5,332 bases of DNA from a virus. Lineage: Duplodnaviria; Heunggongvirae; Uroviricota; Caudoviricetes. Location of the stretch: the IMG/VR virus record IMGVR_UViG_2537561977_000027, positions 1 through 5,332 of that record, one strand, 5' to 3'. The position numbers were made by a program, and so were the translations under genes. Positions 1-5,332 of the stretch are shown piece by piece. Each line of letters opens with the position of its first letter. Positions within the stretch are counted from its first letter, which is position 1. The notes beneath the pieces were generated by a model that was not told the origin of the DNA, did not search any database, and saw only the letters and a program-made list of their open reading frames with translations.

Positions 1-1005
1 TTAATCCCCCGTGGACACTGCGTGGACACTCACGCCACCTTTCAGCGGATTAAGGGCCACCGCATCCTGCAGGTAATCCGGTGCAAAATGTGCATATGCC
101 ATTGTTTGCTGAATGGTTGCGTGGCCAAGAATCTTCTGAAGCGCAATAATGTTTCCTCCGTTCATCACAAAATGGCTGGCGAACGTATGCCGCAGCACAT
201 GTGCAGCCTGGCCTTTTGGTAAATCGGGCTTAACTCTTTTCAGCGCCAAGCAGAATTCCCGGTACTTCACCTCAAACAAGCCGCCTGTTTCTCTGGTTTT
301 GATCGCCTCACAAACTGCCTGCGAAATTGGCACTGTTCTCTTTCGGCCATTTTTGGTTTCAAGAAACGTTACACGGTTATGAACTATCTGTTCACCACGA
401 AGCTTACAAGCTTCACTCCAGCGCGCCCCTGTGCTTAAACACAAAAGCGCAACACGCCAGTAGTCGCCCTCCAGTGTATCGAGCAATAGCGCTACTTCCT
501 TCTGGGACAGAAAAGCCATTTCTCGTGGGGATACATAAAGAATAGAAATCCCCCTTACCGGATGCTCTGCATCCCAGAGGCCTATTTTCTTCAGTACGGT
601 AAACATTCCGGATAACCGATTCATGTATCTGTTAGCAGATGACGGTTTCAATCCATCAGCTATCTTTTGAGAACGCCACGCGATAATTTTCAGCTTATCA
701 AGATCCACAGCCTGCATATCAGCGCCAAGCTCATTGATTATGTTGCGCAGTTGTTTTCGGTCTTCTTCCGCCTTACGCCTGTGCTGGCCGTGATACATCC
801 ACCACAACTCAAGCAAATCATTTAGCGTTCGACGATCACGGTAGCCCTGTATATATTCCCGCTTTTCAGCGTTCGCCATGATGTAGCGTTCAGTGGCCAC
901 CGCTACCGATTTTTTGTCAAATACCTTACGCACGCGCTTTCCCTTGCGTCCGTTCGGCCTGATGTCCAGCAAATAACGACCATCTTCGAGCTTCTTAATT
1001 GACAT
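1..1005 (-). CDS. int: Tyrosine-type site-specific integrase, P2 Int-like (complete, 334 aa)
   Basis: Long minus-strand ORF. Tyrosine-recombinase catalytic residues are visible in order: R in TGARWSEA, H-x-x-R in HVLRHTFASH, and Y in QTMAYAHF. The N-terminus MSIKKLEDGRY and C-terminus SVHAVSTGD resemble P2 Int as I remember it. The ORF-track start at 1020 is a TTG; the in-frame ATG at 1005-1003 has GGAGGG about 7 nt upstream and is the more likely start. Stop TAA is the reverse complement of positions 1-3. Confidence 0.9.
   Translation of the reverse strand: MSIKKLEDGRYLLDIRPNGRKGKRVRKVFDKKSVAVATERYIMANAEKREYIQGYRDRRTLNDLLELWWMYHGQHRRKAEEDRKQLRNIINELGADMQAVDLDKLKIIAWRSQKIADGLKPSSANRYMNRLSGMFTVLKKIGLWDAEHPVRGISILYVSPREMAFLSQKEVALLLDTLEGDYWRVALLCLSTGARWSEACKLRGEQIVHNRVTFLETKNGRKRTVPISQAVCEAIKTRETGGLFEVKYREFCLALKRVKPDLPKGQAAHVLRHTFASHFVMNGGNIIALQKILGHATIQQTMAYAHFAPDYLQDAVALNPLKGGVSVHAVSTGD
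11..30. repeat. Direct repeat GTGGACACT x2 (11-19 and 22-30) inside the integrase 3' end; possible Int arm-type binding site
   Basis: Exact 9-bp direct repeat read from the sequence, 11 bp centre to centre, at the int 3' end where the phage attachment site is expected just beyond the window edge. It also encodes a peptide repeat (SVH/VST), so it could be purely coding. Confidence 0.3.
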
Positions 1006-1101
1006 TGCGAAGCCCTCCAATGAACCGCTCTACAATTTCTCCAGCCTCTTTCCAGCAATAATCAGACCAGACAAAGAGCAGGTCTAACCAGTTTTCTGGC
1101 C

Positions 1102-1422
1102 TTAGCGGGGTGATTTTTGGTTTGTTTCGGTTGAAACCTGATCGCCCTCCGAATCGAAGAAGCCATCAAGAGAGAGAGGCGGAGCAATCTGCCCCGTCGC
1201 AGCATTAGTTTGATTAAACATCACCCAATCCGAATACTTCCGAAAACGAGGATGATTCAAAATCAGGAGTAACGTTTCTCCAGGTATCATTCTTCCCAAT
1301 ATTTCATAATTTTTGAGATTGTTTTGAGATACCCCCGTCACCTCTTCCATCTCTCTACGTGACAATCCCTCTGCCTCTCGAATCAGGCGAAGTTTTTCTC
1401 CAAGGCTTGATTTATGGATCAT
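1102..1422 (-). CDS. C: Immunity (lysogeny) repressor, P2 C-type small HTH protein (106 aa)
   Basis: Minus-strand ORF between int and the divergent cox gene. N-terminal helix-turn-helix-like segment LSRREMEEVTGVSQNNLKNYE; the C-terminal part (RFRKYSDWVMFNQTNAATGQIAPPLS) resembles P2 C as I recall it. The ORF-track start at 1440 is GTG; the ATG at 1422-1420 is preferred. Stop is the reverse complement of 1102-1104. Confidence 0.75.
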   Translation of the reverse strand: MIHKSSLGEKLRLIREAEGLSRREMEEVTGVSQNNLKNYEILGRMIPGETLLLILNHPRFRKYSDWVMFNQTNAATGQIAPPLSLDGFFDSEGDQVSTETNQKSPR

Positions 1423-1537
1423 ATGTGATCTAAACTCCACACTATTGGGTTACATGTAATACAAAACATTCAAATAGCCAAAATAAGCCTATATAAGCCA
1501 TTTTGGGCCATTTGGCCGAATTAAGGAGATTACCACA
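1423..1537. promoter_or_regulatory. Divergent promoter/operator switch region (Pc leftward for C-int, Pe rightward for cox and early genes)
   Basis: 115-bp AT-rich spacer between divergent C and cox starts. AAGGAG RBS at 1523-1528 precedes the cox ATG. Possible -10 TATATA/TATAAG at 1491-1498. I could not place the -35/-10 hexamers for either promoter with confidence. Confidence 0.6.
1471..1520. repeat. Five-unit direct-repeat array with 10-bp periodicity (candidate Cox/C operator boxes)
   Basis: Reading in 10-mers from 1471: CAAATAGCCA, AAATAAGCCT, ATATAAGCCA, TTTTGGGCCA, TTTGGCCGAA. Each has an A/T-rich half followed by (A/G)GCC(A), in helical phase. P2 Cox is established to bind arrays of direct repeats in the Pe-Pc region; assigning these particular boxes is inference. 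Confidence 0.5.
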
Positions 1538-1825
1538 ATGAGCGAATCAGAGCTTGAGGGGTTCATTCAGGTAGCACCATATCCACTTGAAGCGGTGCCA
1601 TATCAACTATTTGCCAAGATGATTGGTCGCAAAGAATCAACCGTCAGAACCATGATTGACGCTGCAAAGTTACCAACGATTGACTTTGTGAAACCAGGTT
1701 CAGTGAAGACGCGAGCATCAGAAAACTGGGTATATCTGCCAGCATTTAACGCAGGTATGCGCAAAGCGTTTTTTGATCAGCCGAAAGAACGCCGCGATGC
1801 ATGGTTGTTGTGGCTGGGGCTTTAA
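1538..1825 (+). CDS. cox: Cox-like excisionase / early-promoter regulator (95 aa)
   Basis: First gene divergent from the repressor, with a strong RBS. The motifs PYQLFAKMIG, VRTMIDAAKLP, WVYLPAFNAG and a C-terminal WLLWLGL match my memory of P2 Cox. Confidence 0.8.
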   Translation: MSESELEGFIQVAPYPLEAVPYQLFAKMIGRKESTVRTMIDAAKLPTIDFVKPGSVKTRASENWVYLPAFNAGMRKAFFDQPKERRDAWLLWLGL

Positions 1826-1831
1826 TCATAA

Positions 1832-2038
1832 ATGACCAGCAATATCATCAGCGCCATTTTGAGCCTTGTGTACCTGGAAGTGGGAGTAATAGCGATTTAT
1901 CTGCTTAACAAGCTAACAGGGCAAAAAAAGCGCTTTATTGTTCTCAACGTTCATTACCTCGCCGCCTATACCAGAGGTCTTTTTCCGACCACTATTGGCG
2001 CGGTTCTCATAGCGTTTGTTATTTGGCTCATTGGGTAG
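1832..2038 (+). CDS. Small hydrophobic protein with two predicted transmembrane helices (68 aa), function unknown
   Basis: ATG at 1832, 6 nt after the cox stop. Two hydrophobic stretches (IISAILSLVYLEVGVIAIYLL and TIGAVLIAFVIWLIG) separated by a basic loop (GQKKRF). RBS is weak (GGGG about 12 nt upstream), so it may depend on coupling to cox. Confidence 0.55.
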   Translation: MTSNIISAILSLVYLEVGVIAIYLLNKLTGQKKRFIVLNVHYLAAYTRGLFPTTIGAVLIAFVIWLIG

Positions 2039-2142
2039 AGGCACAAAAAATGAATAAGCAACAGCAAAACAGCGAACCCCATCACATGAGGTTTCGCCGT
2101 AGATACTTCAAAAATGGACGTTATGTAGGATGCATCAATCGA

Positions 2143-2583
2143 TTAGCCAAACAAGTGTTTAAAAGCAAAGGAGATACCTGTGGTAAGCGCAGATGAGGCG
2201 GTGCTTTTTATTGCATCTATCGCCCCACTCTTGGTTGCATCGACAAGTTTATCTCCAAGCGATTGCTTAAGTGACTCTGGATCAAGTTTCAATAATTCAA
2301 GTCCTTTAGCCGTAAGTACCGCCTTATCGAAACTTTCAAAAGGAACAGCATCAGCAGATACATAACCAGCAGCAATAAGCCACTCAATGGAGTAATAACG
2401 AAGAACAAGAGCTTCATGTTTTTGCTTTCTGACCGCCGGGTCCTTCTCTTCAAACGTTGGAGCGGAAACACCGGTTAAAGCACAAACATCAATGGTTACT
2501 TTTCGGGGAAATGACTCATAAAGAAACGCAAAAGTTTTACCAACAGTTTCATTAAAAACATCAATATTTGAAGGTGTTGCCAT
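2143..2583 (-). CDS. Hypothetical protein (146 aa), antisense to the early operon; soluble N-terminal domain plus Gly/Ala/Ser-rich hydrophobic C-terminal tail
   Basis: Minus-strand ORF with ATG at 2583-2581 and GAGG 6 nt upstream. Protein-like composition, whereas plus-strand frames across the same interval are S/A/L-rich junk. Local GC is visibly lower than the flanks. C-terminal tail AIDAIKSTASSALTTGISFAFKHLFG. I do not recognise the family. The ORF-track 229-aa version (to 2832) has a junk-like N-terminal extension and a non-ATG start. Confidence 0.6.
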   Translation of the reverse strand: MATPSNIDVFNETVGKTFAFLYESFPRKVTIDVCALTGVSAPTFEEKDPAVRKQKHEALVLRYYSIEWLIAAGYVSADAVPFESFDKAVLTAKGLELLKLDPESLKQSLGDKLVDATKSGAIDAIKSTASSALTTGISFAFKHLFG

Positions 2584-2791
2584 GGATAACCTCACACAGA
2601 CAAAAGAAACAGCCATAAAAGAACTATATGACGATTTACGTTCCATCATTACACAACAAAAATCAGGTCGGCTAGACCCTACACGAGCAAAAGCCGCATG
2701 GGAAGTGGCACTGGCCAACCGGGATACTGGAGTAATTAGTGAAGTTATGGCCGAAGTAATTTTTAAACTTACAAGAAACATCAGACTGTAG
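2582..2791 (+). CDS. Hypothetical small helical protein (69 aa)
   Basis: ATG at 2582 with AGGTG 6 nt upstream. Charged, helix-like composition (KETAIKELYDDLRSIITQQK). The start codon overlaps the divergent start of the minus-strand gene within CCATGG. Stop TAG at 2789-2791. Confidence 0.55.
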   Translation: MDNLTQTKETAIKELYDDLRSIITQQKSGRLDPTRAKAAWEVALANRDTGVISEVMAEVIFKLTRNIRL

Positions 2792-2820
2792 ATCTTCAAC
2801 ACATTGAGGCAAGTCGGAAT

Positions 2821-3162
2821 ATGAAACAGCAACGTAATTCACGCTTTCGTAATGGTGCTGAACGCCACGCTAACCGTTTCGCTACCAGTGCATCACGCAG
2901 TAACATCCGCTACAGCCTGAGCGAAACACACGCAACACCGGATGGCCACGCTGTAAAACAAATCGGCGAGCATGCCTGGCTGATTGAGAAAGCTGGAATC
3001 GTGGTCCACAAATGCCCACGCAATCCGTTTACCGGAAACCGCATTTTTGCATTGAGCTGCGGCGACAATCACTTCGGGCAGGATTTCACATTATACGAAG
3101 CACTTCGCACGGTTGATCGTCTGCTTCGCGGGCAAAGTTTTATTAAACAGGCTGATTTATAA
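2821..3162 (+). CDS. Hypothetical early-region protein (113 aa), basic N-terminus
   Basis: ATG at 2821; GAGG about 11 nt upstream. Single long ORF with an Arg-rich N-terminal ~30 residues. No family recognised. Confidence 0.5.
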   Translation: MKQQRNSRFRNGAERHANRFATSASRSNIRYSLSETHATPDGHAVKQIGEHAWLIEKAGIVVHKCPRNPFTGNRIFALSCGDNHFGQDFTLYEALRTVDRLLRGQSFIKQADL

Positions 3163-3172
3163 CAGGTGCTTT

Positions 3173-3451
3173 ATGACCAAAGAGCATGCACAAGGTGTAT
3201 TTATCCGTTTTATTGATTTTCGCGGTGAACTGTTATTACGCGCATCAGCCATTGACGGAGTTGTTCCATCCGAAAAAAACGCAGCTACTTACGTTTATCT
3301 GAACGGTACGCGCCTGACTGTGGAGCTTCCGTACCAGACCGTACGAGAAATCATTAGCGAAGCTGAAAAGGCACGTCAGGTTAATGGCGATGAACCCTAT
3401 ATCGAAATTATTTGTATGGATTCAGAAGCTGAAATTCAGAAAGCAGATTAA
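3173..3451 (+). CDS. Hypothetical early-region protein (92 aa)
   Basis: The ORF-track start at 3113 is TTG and overlaps the previous gene. The ATG at 3173 with AGGTG 4 nt upstream is preferred. Stop TAA at 3449-3451. Confidence 0.55.
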   Translation: MTKEHAQGVFIRFIDFRGELLLRASAIDGVVPSEKNAATYVYLNGTRLTVELPYQTVREIISEAEKARQVNGDEPYIEIICMDSEAEIQKAD

Positions 3452-3462
3452 AGGGCGTTGCG

Positions 3463-3705
3463 ATGGGCAAAGAATATAAAACTCTCATTAATAAAGCACT
3501 TGAACGATTTTATTTTCGCTTAAGTGCATCAGGCGCTCATGCTGAACGTGCAGCCCGTGACTCATTGACCAGGGCAATCCGGAGTCTGTATGACGTGGCT
3601 TTTTACGCTGATGATCTGGATGCACTTAACGAACTTTCCGAGCTAATCTGTGCCGCAGAATGCGGGGAACATATTGAACCGTATAAGCTGGGGAATATCG
3701 CATGA
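3463..3705 (+). CDS. Hypothetical early-region protein (80 aa)
   Basis: ATG at 3463, with AAGGG 7 nt upstream. Stop TGA at 3703-3705 overlaps the next start (ATGA). Confidence 0.55.
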   Translation: MGKEYKTLINKALERFYFRLSASGAHAERAARDSLTRAIRSLYDVAFYADDLDALNELSELICAAECGEHIEPYKLGNIA

Positions 3706-3815
3706 GTATATTTATCTCATGGCTTGTTCTGATTATTTCTGTGGCCTGCGCCATTGGGATTATGCGAATTATTCATTCAGTAAAAAAGATTGAACGCTTT
3801 TTCACTGGCGAATAA
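3702..3815 (+). CDS. Candidate 37-aa single-pass membrane micro-protein (MSIFISWLVLIISVACAIGIMRIIHSVKKIERFFTGE)
   Basis: Not in the ORF track (below its length cut-off); hand-translated. ATG at 3702 overlaps the upstream TGA in ATGA, suggesting translational coupling. One hydrophobic helix followed by a basic tail. GGGGA lies 6 nt upstream. Confidence 0.4.
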   Translation: MSIFISWLVLIISVACAIGIMRIIHSVKKIERFFTGE

Positions 3816-3901
3816 CAGAGCAAATAAAACCACAGGTTAAATAAGAAAATGTAAAAACAATCCGCATTCGCGGAGGTATTCGCATACGCCAAGGAGGCGT
3901 A

Positions 3902-4105
3902 ATGGCAATTAAGCATTTTCCTGTCGTTCGTTTTACCTCCAGAGGACGTGAATACGAAGTCGACGAACGCCTGATTACCACAATCGACAAACACCGTTCA
4001 GAAAAGGATGCACATCACATCTATCTCACTGACGGCACTTACTTCTGCGCCACGAATGTGGTGCAGGTGAACCTTATCCGACAGGTACAGGAGTCACGCA
4101 GATGA
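3902..4105 (+). CDS. Hypothetical early-region protein (67 aa)
   Basis: ATG at 3902 with strong AAGGAGG at 3889-3895. Stop TGA overlaps the next start (ATGA at 4102-4105). Confidence 0.6.
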   Translation: MAIKHFPVVRFTSRGREYEVDERLITTIDKHRSEKDAHHIYLTDGTYFCATNVVQVNLIRQVQESRR

Positions 4106-4368
4106 CCATTCTGGACTACATCGCTACCCATCCGGGTTGTAGCGGCGGAGAAATCGCCGCAGCACTGAATACCCTAACCACAGCCATCAATGCTGAGTTA
4201 CGCCGACTCTGGCGCGGCGGCTTAGTCATCAGAACAAACCGCAGCACAGGTGGGCGCGCTCGCAAAGCAGGAGGCCAGGCTTCTTACCACGTAAACCCGA
4301 TGCCGTTCGGGTGTAGCAATCCACTTACTCACATGTTTAACCAGCTACTGAAGGAAACCAGAGCATGA
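4102..4368 (+). CDS. Putative winged-helix DNA-binding protein (88 aa)
   Basis: ATG at 4102 with CAGGAG 8 nt upstream. Pattern LDYIATHPGCSGGEIAAAL...LRRLWRGGLVIR followed by a Gly/Arg-rich wing-like segment (TNRSTGGRARKAGG), typical of wHTH regulators. Fold assignment is inference. Confidence 0.5.
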   Translation: MTILDYIATHPGCSGGEIAAALNTLTTAINAELRRLWRGGLVIRTNRSTGGRARKAGGQASYHVNPMPFGCSNPLTHMFNQLLKETRA

Positions 4369-4664
4369 GCACCATCAATCACCAGAAGCTACGCGAACTG
4401 GCATTTGCCCTGCAACGAATGGCAACGCCTCAAAAATTACTGGCATTTCGCGCAATGCTCTCGCCGTCTGCTGTGCTGGCACTGCTGGATGAGCTGGAGC
4501 ACGCCAGAACCACGGCTCCTGCCATTCGCCTGACACTCCATCATGAAATCGCTGATTTCTGTGCGACGTTGGAGGCGCCAGGCGAACCGGAAACGCCGGA
4601 AGCAATACAGCAAGAGCTGCTGCAACGCATTGACAAGGTTTTTGATTTTTTTCTGAACCAGTAA
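4365..4664 (+). CDS. Hypothetical early-region protein (99 aa), acidic helical
   Basis: ATG at 4365 overlaps the upstream stop (ATGA); AAGGA about 9 nt upstream. Last gene before the structured non-coding region. Confidence 0.55.
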   Translation: MSTINHQKLRELAFALQRMATPQKLLAFRAMLSPSAVLALLDELEHARTTAPAIRLTLHHEIADFCATLEAPGEPETPEAIQQELLQRIDKVFDFFLNQ

Positions 4665-4780
4665 GAAACCAGAACATGTACACACAAAAAACCGCTTGCC
4701 ATGCCGCAATCAGTCAGGTTACATTTCCGTTGCATCTCATAAAACGGGGGCCGGGTTTCGCAGCCTGCTGATCAACAAAG

Positions 4781-4810
4781 CGCACAACCGCGCCAGCGGT
4801 TTTTTGTGCG
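4781..4810 (+). terminator. Intrinsic-terminator-like hairpin followed by a T-run
   Basis: Inner stem AACCGC (4786-4791) / GCGGTT (4796-4801) with loop GCCA, then TTTT (4802-4805). Outer arms CGCACA (4781-4786) / TGTGCG (4805-4810) can extend the helix across a T bulge. A second T-run of six follows at 4828-4833. Confidence 0.45.
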
Positions 4811-4861
4811 TACCGCATTGCCGCACATTTTTTCGCATCAGAATTATGGTGGGGCGTACGG

Positions 4862-4891
4862 GGCCGACTTCGGTCGGGCCGGGTTTTCTTT
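4862..4891 (+). terminator. GC-rich hairpin with TTCG tetraloop followed by a U-rich tract
   Basis: GGCCGAC (4862-4868), loop TTCG, GTCGGGCC (4873-4880) with one bulge, then GGGTTTTCTTTG. The interrupted U-tract makes terminator function uncertain; it could instead be a stable RNA structural element. Confidence 0.35.
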
Positions 4892-4987
4892 GTTGACCGG
4901 TACTGCGAACCTCGTACGTCTCGCCACCCACAGTTTCGCAGCTCTGGATGGTGAGTATTCAAAACTTACCAACAAAGAGGCCATACC

Positions 4988-5218
4988 ATGGCAAACCGCA
5001 AACAGCACCGCGCTATCGCGGAGCGTCGTCACATCCAGACTGAAATCAACCGCAGACTTTCCCGCGCATCACGCGTCGCGCAAATCATGCACATCAATAT
5101 GCTGCATGAGCGCAGCCACGCACTATCAAACATTTATTCCGCCTCTGTTTTCAGCTATCTGGCGGATGATCTGCACGAGCTTCAACAGCTCATCCAGCAG
5201 CAAAACAAACTCCATTAA
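4988..5218 (+). CDS. Hypothetical small basic/helical protein (76 aa)
   Basis: ATG at 4988 with AAGAGG at 4974-4979. Arg-rich N-terminus (MANRKQHRAIAERRHIQTEINRRLSRASR), no cysteines. First gene after the structured region. No family recognised. Confidence 0.5.
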   Translation: MANRKQHRAIAERRHIQTEINRRLSRASRVAQIMHINMLHERSHALSNIYSASVFSYLADDLHELQQLIQQQNKLH

Positions 5219-5290
5219 TTCCTGTTCCGGGCCTTTCCTGCACCTTGCGGCGGGAGGCCTTCGCACATCTGTAACAAGAGGATTGCCGCA

Positions 5291-5332
5291 ATGATTCTCG
5301 CCAACGACTTTCTTGAATACCTGCTCAACACA
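5291..5332 (+). CDS. 5' end of a downstream gene, truncated by the window (MILANDFLEYLLNT...)
   Basis: ATG at 5291 with AAGAGG about 11 nt upstream; open to the window end. Only 14 codons are visible, so identity cannot be judged (a replication gene would be expected hereabouts in a P2-like layout, but I cannot confirm it). Confidence 0.3.
   Translation, partial: MILANDFLEYLLNT

Follow-up and report, generated by a model that had tools for sequence, protein, structure and literature searches.

To our knowledge, few solutions have been described by which a prophage spares itself from its own defences, namely Tai/Ati, Tha/Ith and BstA/aba, all of them reported since 2021. In phi80, taiEcA (orf63) lies divergently inside the Q-dependent late operon, and atiEcA (orf64) adjoins it in the sense direction (PMC11364771). 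Tai acts in the lysogen, where its anti-phage activity consists of a block of tail assembly that is inhibited by the partner protein, and Tai protein drops when Q drives late transcription; a delta-ati prophage suffers from autoimmunity, AtiSalB binds TaiSalB, and the Tai/Ati locus is a moron often found just 5' of packaging genes (PMC11364771). In Staphylococcus aureus 80alpha, Tha and Ith exclude each other's expression by antisense transcription, with polymerase collisions as the main cause (PMC11087260). In the Salmonella prophage BTP1, the BstA defence needs a cognate element of the same locus, aba, to spare the prophage's own lytic cycle (PMC8585504). Here we analyse a stretch of 5,332 nucleotides (the window; positions 1 to 5,332 of IMG/VR virus record IMGVR_UViG_2537561977_000027), in which two small divergent genes share bases of their start codons, and we compare this pair with the systems above.

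The P2-like prophage to which the window belongs is located beside pdxB in Escherichia coli FDAARGOS_943 (100% identity), and the window spans its immunity and early regions. We find that the head-to-head overlap is conserved between homologous pairs and that the two genes constitute a mobile cassette. Tentatively, and with chances that we put a little short of even, we read them as an uncharacterised immunity/counter-immunity-like pair with reciprocal expression.

Head-to-head start codons and embedded ribosome-binding sites

The junction of the two genes in the window is made of the following features, where SD stands for Shine-Dalgarno sequence, aa for amino acids and PGAP for the Prokaryotic Genome Annotation Pipeline:

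2143..2583, minus strand: large gene, 146 aa, phrog_2266 family, winged-helix/MarR-like fold plus C-terminal helices, antisense to the early operon
2582..2791, plus strand: small gene, 69 aa, three-helix bundle, PGAP coding sequence WP_000369564.1, sense with the early operon
2581..2584, both strands: CATG core in which the two ATGs overlap, at an offset conserved in the junction alignment
2571-2576, plus strand: AAGGTG, SD of the small gene, 5 nt 5' of the plus ATG and coinciding with large-gene codons 3-5 (T-P-S)
2593..2590, minus strand: GAGG, SD of the large gene, 6 nt 5' of the minus ATG and coinciding with small-gene codons 3-4 (N-L)

Bases 2582-2583 are common to the plus ATG (2582-2584) and the minus ATG (2583..2581), and RefSeq/PGAP annotates exactly these two coding sequences with their 2-nt overlap (locus 5143..5583, minus strand, and 5582..5791, plus strand). 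An earlier inspection of the DNA by itself, hereafter the sequence-only reading, had placed the overlap in a CCATGG palindrome at 2579-2586 and pointed to an SD-like motif on each strand. It was right about both ATGs, the two shared bases and the presence of both motifs; the hexamer lies at 2580-2585, and the motif coordinates were 1-2 bases away from those listed above. The palindrome was rejected as a functional element, its count in the window being at chance (2 versus 1.23 expected; 23 versus 27.6 for CATG). Indeed, only the CATG core is conserved, and CCATGG is specific to this window: in locus L004, a different P2-like prophage near chpB (73% nucleotide identity) that has both genes and the 2-nt overlap, the hexamer is ACATGA. 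What exceeds chance is the conservation of the head-to-head overlap between homologous pairs, not the hexamer.

This conservation was assessed on 28 genomic and 80 viral loci that encode large-protein relatives, with further loci from exact-protein look-up. The related loci, 123 overall, come from Enterobacterales, Pseudomonas and sequenced phages. Both families were located with hidden Markov models built from alignments of the large (A3) and the small (A6) protein. Both genes are present at 79 of the 123 loci, and they are divergent in 79/79. The sequence-only reading had asked whether the exact overlap recurs in related prophages, and it does: the 2-nt CATG overlap is found at 64 of the 79 pair loci and, after dereplication, in 48/53 distinct protein pairs, with the caveat that the loci are phylogenetically related and the counts overstate the number of independent events, a point that also weighs against our reading of the pair. 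The start codons abut (CATATG) at 3 further loci and are separated by 1 nt in 1, 4 nt in 8, 17 nt in 2 and 20 nt in 1. The overlap persists despite saturated synonymous divergence, and is independently annotated in E. coli DETEC-S792, Yersinia, Pseudomonas, Salmonella phage FSL SP-004 and Klebsiella phage ST147-VIM1phi7.1, the large proteins of these last two phages being just 24-25% identical to that of the window. In a neighbour-joining tree, which is not robust at such divergence, pair and large-only forms are interleaved and pair forms occupy the deepest branches, suggesting that the arrangement is old and that the small gene was lost or replaced repeatedly.

Two loci show variations of the junction. 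In L021 (~3811-3999), the start codon of the small-gene homolog is changed from ATG to ATT (CATG to AATG), and this gene may be a decaying partner. In L029 (3787-4002), from a Bilophila metagenome-assembled genome, a large-gene homolog faces a divergent 72-aa open reading frame (ORF) with the same +1 offset and an opposite-strand SD core; homology of this ORF to the small family was not detectable.

Both ORFs are genuine genes with the starts given above, in line with the sequence-only reading. The large protein matches phrog_2266 with E=3.3e-29 (its residues 4-141 aligning to positions 2-143 of the 144-position profile), its FSL SP-004 homolog does so with E=1e-61, and the family N-terminus, M-x-x-(S/P)-N-I-x-x-F-(D/N)-E, is conserved from residue 1. 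An exhaustive profile search yielded 1581 representatives (50% identity) matching the large-family profile at E<=1e-3, and among the 150 best of these 1581 matches nearly all are stand-alone proteins, 135-160 aa long, whose alignments begin at residues 1-5. The small family comprises 82 clusters with invariant Q26, D32, R35 and W40, and the AlphaFold2 model of the small protein has a predicted local distance difference test score of 93. Ratios of nonsynonymous to synonymous substitution rates (dN/dS, Nei-Gojobori) range from 0.06 to 0.30 for the large gene and from 0.08 to 0.39 for the small gene, many pairs being synonymously saturated. No stretch of the small family was conserved enough for a back-translated pattern to be scanned against viral contigs. 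In a Pseudomonas clade (e.g., L008, L012 and L031), the small protein ends with a cysteine-rich tail (…PRCRCCRSC), which could be a metal-binding extension and is missing from the E. coli form.

These data bear on whether the overlap could be an annotation artefact, one ORF being no gene or the minus gene starting elsewhere, so that the overlap would be coincidental. The minus ORF is indeed open upstream to a TTG at 2832 in this window, and one metagenomic call is a 212-aa form. Nevertheless, the family N-terminus aligns from residue 1 in ~150 representatives, and in other loci a stop codon located 1-5 codons 5' of the large-gene ATG closes the frame, which excludes the longer extension that is open here. 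The other candidate starts of the minus gene (ATG 2616, TTG 2832 and the 212-aa metagenomic call) were ruled out on these two grounds. Moreover, both ORFs are under purifying selection, and their coding regions do not overlap save for the 2 shared bases. An artefact is thus scarcely credible.

Each ribosome-binding site (RBS) is encoded in codons 3-5 of the partner gene. Aligned junctions show a GGAG/GAGG core 6-9 nt 5' of the large-gene ATG, within small-gene codons 3-5; reciprocally, large-gene codons 3-5 read CTCC or CCTT (GGAG/AAGG on the opposite strand), 5-6 nt from the small-gene ATG. An opposite-strand SD core within large-gene codons 2-7 is present in 29/35 distinct pair junctions versus 8/32 large-only junctions (Fisher p=2e-6, uncorrected for phylogeny). 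The conserved Ser codon is TCT, TCG, TCA or TCC in large-only loci and almost always TCC in pair loci. For both genes, in two Pseudomonas clades, synonymous codon entropy falls to 0.31-0.51 bits in codons 2-6, compared with 1.14-1.43 bits elsewhere (permutation p<=0.007). Because the SDs are embedded and the starts are shared, the two mRNAs are complementary across both SDs and both AUGs: each carries at least ~15 nt of antisense partner sequence, with a minimal overlap of ~30 nt deduced from the SD positions. On both strands, the 60-nt junction RNAs have less structure than shuffles, as expected for translation-initiation regions. An intramolecular hairpin between an SD and the complement of the partner's SD was unsupported, 8/8 junction RNAs being less stable than their shuffles (z=+0.03 to +1.0).

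The cassette and its place in phage operons

The pair is a compact, horizontally mobile cassette, or phage moron, inserted in temperate-phage operons. In the window, the cassette and the genes that precede it are arranged as follows:

2127..2815, no strand: two-gene cassette of ~650-690 bp, approximate limits from the alignment with L002 and L003
to 1005, minus strand: integrase (annotation)
1102-1422, minus strand: C-type helix-turn-helix repressor (annotation)
1538-1825, plus strand: Cox (Pfam Phage_Cox, E=1e-22)
1832-2038, plus strand: 68-aa gene (annotation)
1538..2038, plus strand: cox and the 68-aa gene together, which form the start of the early lytic operon and read into the cassette (Pfam, annotation)

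On the 3' side of the pair, the plus strand continues with DUF4761, DUF4754 and the remaining genes of the early operon, as far as the replication endonuclease. In the close relatives L002 and L003, the region ~2127-2815 is missing and the 68-aa gene region leads directly to DUF4761; as in other morons, extra genes thus stand between conserved neighbours and are missing in close relatives. Coverage of 2040-2820 reaches 80% or more in only 3 of 5426 complete E. coli genomes. A 16-nt repeat that flanks the cassette (2052-2067 / 2817-2832) was considered as a target-site duplication and rejected: it is also present in cassette-free relatives and mirrors two similar gene starts. A short ORF beginning with MNKQQQ at 2050 (region 2050-2196) is homologous to the region just 5' of DUF4761 in cassette-free phages, where the homologous stretch continues, in the same frame, into the DUF4761 start as annotated (MKQQ...).

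The cassette occurs in at least 10 non-equivalent phage contexts, with the following insertion sites:

After cox: window and Morganella
Between an early-promoter-like TTGACA-18-TATATT and cox: Yersinia
After CII, and after gpU: Pfam-labelled flanks
Between the large terminase and gpW/portal
Before a Nu1-type small terminase: Pfam-labelled flanks
Between antiterminator Q and a GH19 endolysin: Pfam-labelled flanks
Before an N-acetylmuramidase: Pfam-labelled flanks
After tail sheath or tube
Between baseplate V and gp25: Pfam-labelled flanks

Wherever gene calls or Pfam-labelled flanks were used to check a context, the small gene runs with the operon and the large gene is antisense to it. A crude six-frame ORF census, noisy in GC-rich DNA, found both flanks to be sense at 58/80 pair loci. 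At L040 and L042, 1 nt separates the large-gene stop from that of the terminase or tube gene before it, leaving no space for a terminator that would block the operon. Large genes that occur alone are again divergent from a phage gene (small terminase, gpW or holin), across a 46-100 nt gap.

Could this arrangement reflect compaction only, two real and functionally independent accessory genes having been squeezed together by selection for minimal length, without regulatory meaning? The offset is not absolutely fixed, as 15/79 loci have abutting starts or gaps of 1-20 nt; the ends of the cassette are tight as well, with a 1-nt gap at the 3' end; and the AT-type start-start overlap is the commonest class of the rare divergent overlaps (bioRxiv 10.64898/2026.09.10.750558). 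However, the two families co-occur and move together through these contexts with constant polarity to the host operon, and each RBS is held inside a partner coding sequence under detectable constraint. This makes compaction alone unlikely in our view. In addition, RBSs embedded in the partner coding sequence force overlapping antisense 5' regions, whatever drove the compaction.

Some relatives have other neighbours. In FSL SP-004 (L124 1068-2108), the large gene is followed, in the same direction, by a Fic-domain gene, and in ST147-VIM1phi7.1 (L125 3062-4298) the pair adjoins a reverse-transcriptase gene and an XRE regulator gene. These are accessory, defence-like neighbourhoods, which are compatible with a defence island and do not prove it. 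L038 (5001-5483) encodes a distant homolog of the large protein, called at 160 aa; its surroundings, with TraG/TrwB and HicB genes, resemble an integrative conjugative element, and it has no small partner, so the large family is not restricted to phages.

Expression of the pair and its possible function

Architecture and precedent make a mutually exclusive switch the best-supported mechanism, which we would picture as follows. The host operon, in the window the P2-type early operon under repression by C, would be silent in the lysogen; a promoter of its own, situated within the small gene or past it, would then drive production of the large winged-helix protein. At lytic onset, RNA polymerase would cross the whole large gene in antisense and shut it off through head-on collisions or by occluding its promoter; an RNA duplex may also contribute to silencing, the mRNAs being complementary over SDs and AUGs. 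The same lytic transcript would supply the small-gene mRNA. The large protein would most likely serve the lysogen, with anti-phage immunity as the leading guess by analogy with phi80 Tai/Ati and 80alpha Tha/Ith, and the small protein would then be its antagonist, guarding the prophage's own lytic cycle. The broadest form of this proposal, in which phrog_2266 (~1,600 representatives at 50% identity, from Proteobacterial prophages) and its small divergent partner form an undescribed and widespread prophage immunity/counter-immunity system, with mRNAs made obligate mutual antisense regulators by the shared CATG and the reciprocally embedded RBSs, and read-through swapping defence off and antidote on, is possible and seems to us rather doubtful.

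The sequence-only reading had already suggested a mutually exclusive switch between early lytic transcription and the antisense gene, and had deduced that each promoter must lie within the other gene. The second idea does not hold for the small gene, which sits after cox in a P2-type early operon and can be read from the promoter of that operon. Between 1400 and 3119 of the window, no terminator was predicted on the plus strand, so no promoter inside the large gene is needed. As for the switch, which is deduced from architecture and precedent, the orientation rule fits, as do the examples of Tai/Ati and Tha/Ith, but the promoter of the large gene was not found by the strict scans. Relaxed scanning provided one weak candidate, which the strict scans had missed:

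2812..2785, minus strand: candidate large-gene promoter TTGCCT-16-TACAGT, 8/12 matches

This sequence spans the stop codon of the small gene and the intergenic gap, and a similar TTCACT-18-TACAGT occurs at the equivalent place in L004. Other weak leads are at 3086..3059 in L125, on the small-gene strand and beyond the 3' end of the large gene, and at 5173..5145 in L036. Synonymous-site profiling for an embedded promoter singled out codons 2-6 of both genes alone.

Several results weigh against an immunity/counter-immunity pair with reciprocal expression. Strict scans of the window and of a Pseudomonas locus revealed no consensus sigma-70 promoter for the large gene, and the relaxed scan of 55 loci gave nothing positionally consistent. 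In ST147-VIM1phi7.1, the co-oriented upstream genes, encoding the XRE regulator and the reverse transcriptase, are not obviously lytic. Neither protein matched Pfam or NCBIfam, nor the PADLOC-DB v2.0.0 defence models at E<=1. Comparisons with the phi80 proteins detected no homology, the hhalign probability being 0.1% for the large family A3 against TaiEcA and 0.05% for the small family A6 against AtiEcA. The winged-helix fold is no less suited to a DNA-binding regulator than to an immune effector. Finally, each gene also occurs without the other, so the partnership is not obligatory: 42 loci have the large gene without a detectable small gene, and in E. coli SW071611 (L005 3490-3731) the small gene is alone. 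This last locus retains ~45 nt of the 5' coding end of the large gene, SD included, before the small gene, suggesting that the large gene was deleted.

Other searches were likewise negative. No Pfam MarR/HTH match above threshold was found for the large protein; the small protein has no helix-turn-helix match; the window small protein matched no PHROG, its FSL SP-004 counterpart being phrog_2454; and a literature search with these accessions and PHROG identifiers found no papers.

The fold of the large protein brings up the possibility of a regulatory lock, in which the large protein would be a cis-acting repressor or roadblock on the phage operon or on its own control region and the small protein its antagonist, the pair forming a bistable toggle of lytic commitment rather than an anti-phage system. 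The MarR-like winged helix, with N- and C-terminal helices typical of dimeric regulators, would suit such a role; insertions are often at operon junctions (after the early promoter, after Q, before terminase genes), and divergent genes without intergenic space resemble repressor/anti-repressor switches. By contrast, the window already contains a complete C/Cox switch (1102-1825), most relatives evidently function without the cassette, and its many sites are not equivalent and include some within tail and baseplate gene blocks. Furthermore, the junction showed no operator-like inverted repeat that is conserved, and the lack of a helix-turn-helix match in the small protein gives no support either. 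Overall, a regulatory lock appears unlikely.

A toxin-antitoxin or addiction module, one protein being toxic and the other neutralizing it so that the prophage is stabilized, is a further alternative, and a quite improbable one. Two small genes travel together, the small helical partner could be an antidote, and FSL SP-004 has the Fic gene as a neighbour. However, the genes are divergent and not co-transcribed, as opposed to the co-directional bicistron of type II modules; no toxin or antitoxin family was matched in Pfam, NCBIfam or PADLOC; and each gene is found without the other.

Returning to the immunity/counter-immunity pair, the closest comparison is with the noncontiguous-operon layout of prophage immunity genes, and with Tai/Ati in particular. 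In the window, Yersinia, Morganella and Pseudomonas, as in phi80, a divergent gene interrupts a phage lytic operon and its small adjacent partner is sense. The proteins differ: TaiEcA is phrog_5483 (~170-205 aa) and AtiEcA phrog_20632, whereas the present pair is phrog_2266 (~135-160 aa) with phrog_2454 or an unclassified partner, and in tblastn searches with Tai and with the large protein neither retrieved the other's phages. The annotated tai and ati coding sequences of phi80 overlap head to head by 20 nt (L126 3960-3980; record 44959-44979), which goes unmentioned in PMC11364771. Met7 of TaiEcA, an in-frame ATG, would give the same 2-nt CATG overlap with ati, and the SD-like GGAGG of tai and the AGGT before the second ati ATG lie back to back. 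For Tai/Ati, the exact 2-nt overlap is undiscussed; in the present pair it is conserved.

Tha/Ith likewise combines a prophage defence gene with a small inhibitor gene on the opposite strand and couples immunity to the phage life cycle, but with reversed polarity: the defence gene is in the cI (lysogenic) operon, and the small inhibitor gene is nested in antisense with its own constitutive promoter. Moreover, Tha is a HEPN RNase, the host is Gram-positive, and the proteins are unrelated to those studied here. In BstA/aba, the antidote is a DNA element inside the gene, as opposed to a divergent protein-coding partner, and the protein is also unrelated. The present pair would work like Tai/Ati and Tha/Ith while being a member of neither family. 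It shares their operon logic, has unrelated proteins and is far more widely spread: it occurs across Enterobacterales and Pseudomonas, in prophages of the P2-like, lambda-like and Mu-like types.

In P2 C/Cox and in phage 186 pR/pL, convergent interfering promoters lie between a repressor gene and a small divergent gene. Those switches have an intergenic control region with operators; by contrast, the present pair has no intergenic region and is an optional cassette. In the noncontiguous operon, reportedly described by Saenz-Lahoya et al. in 2019, and the excludon, by Sesto et al. in 2013, an antisense gene or divergent overlapping 5' transcripts are said to result in reciprocal regulation. Both are defined by mapped transcripts, whereas the present pair is known from sequence, with an overlap forced at the RBSs and starts. 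The large gene is nested in antisense; its sole promoter candidate in the window is the weak 8/12 match.

The overlap geometry belongs to a known rare class without an assigned function: divergent overlaps account for 0.9% of overlapping gene pairs, and 73% of those are 'AT' start-start overlaps (bioRxiv 10.64898/2026.09.10.750558). Among annotated 'AT-type' divergent overlaps, our results show at least one family that is conserved, is subject to selection and does not stem from an error of start annotation. Here the architecture reaches its limit, with zero intergenic DNA and each RBS inside the partner's codons. Combining antisense nesting, RNA complementarity at the level of the RBSs and a putative protein antidote, the small cassette would make a cheap test system. 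If the proposal is true, a conserved start-start overlap between an operon-antisense gene and a small sense gene could serve as a search signature for defence/self-immunity loci.

Further features of the window

Terminator-like hairpins with T-runs are present 3' of the large-gene stop in the window (2093..2075, minus strand) and in L004 (3533..3500, minus strand). The window hairpin sequence is also found in cassette-free relatives, and is therefore not specific to the cassette.

Further downstream, two matches at the Rfam gathering score were obtained on the plus strand, the isrK Hfq-binding RNA at 4732-4806 (56.9 bits) and the C4 antisense RNA at 4842-4931 (77.8 bits). Both lie just 5' of a gene for a 76-aa 'derepression protein' (4988-5218), a layout that corresponds to a P1/P7 immI-like c4-antirepressor arrangement within a P2-like prophage.

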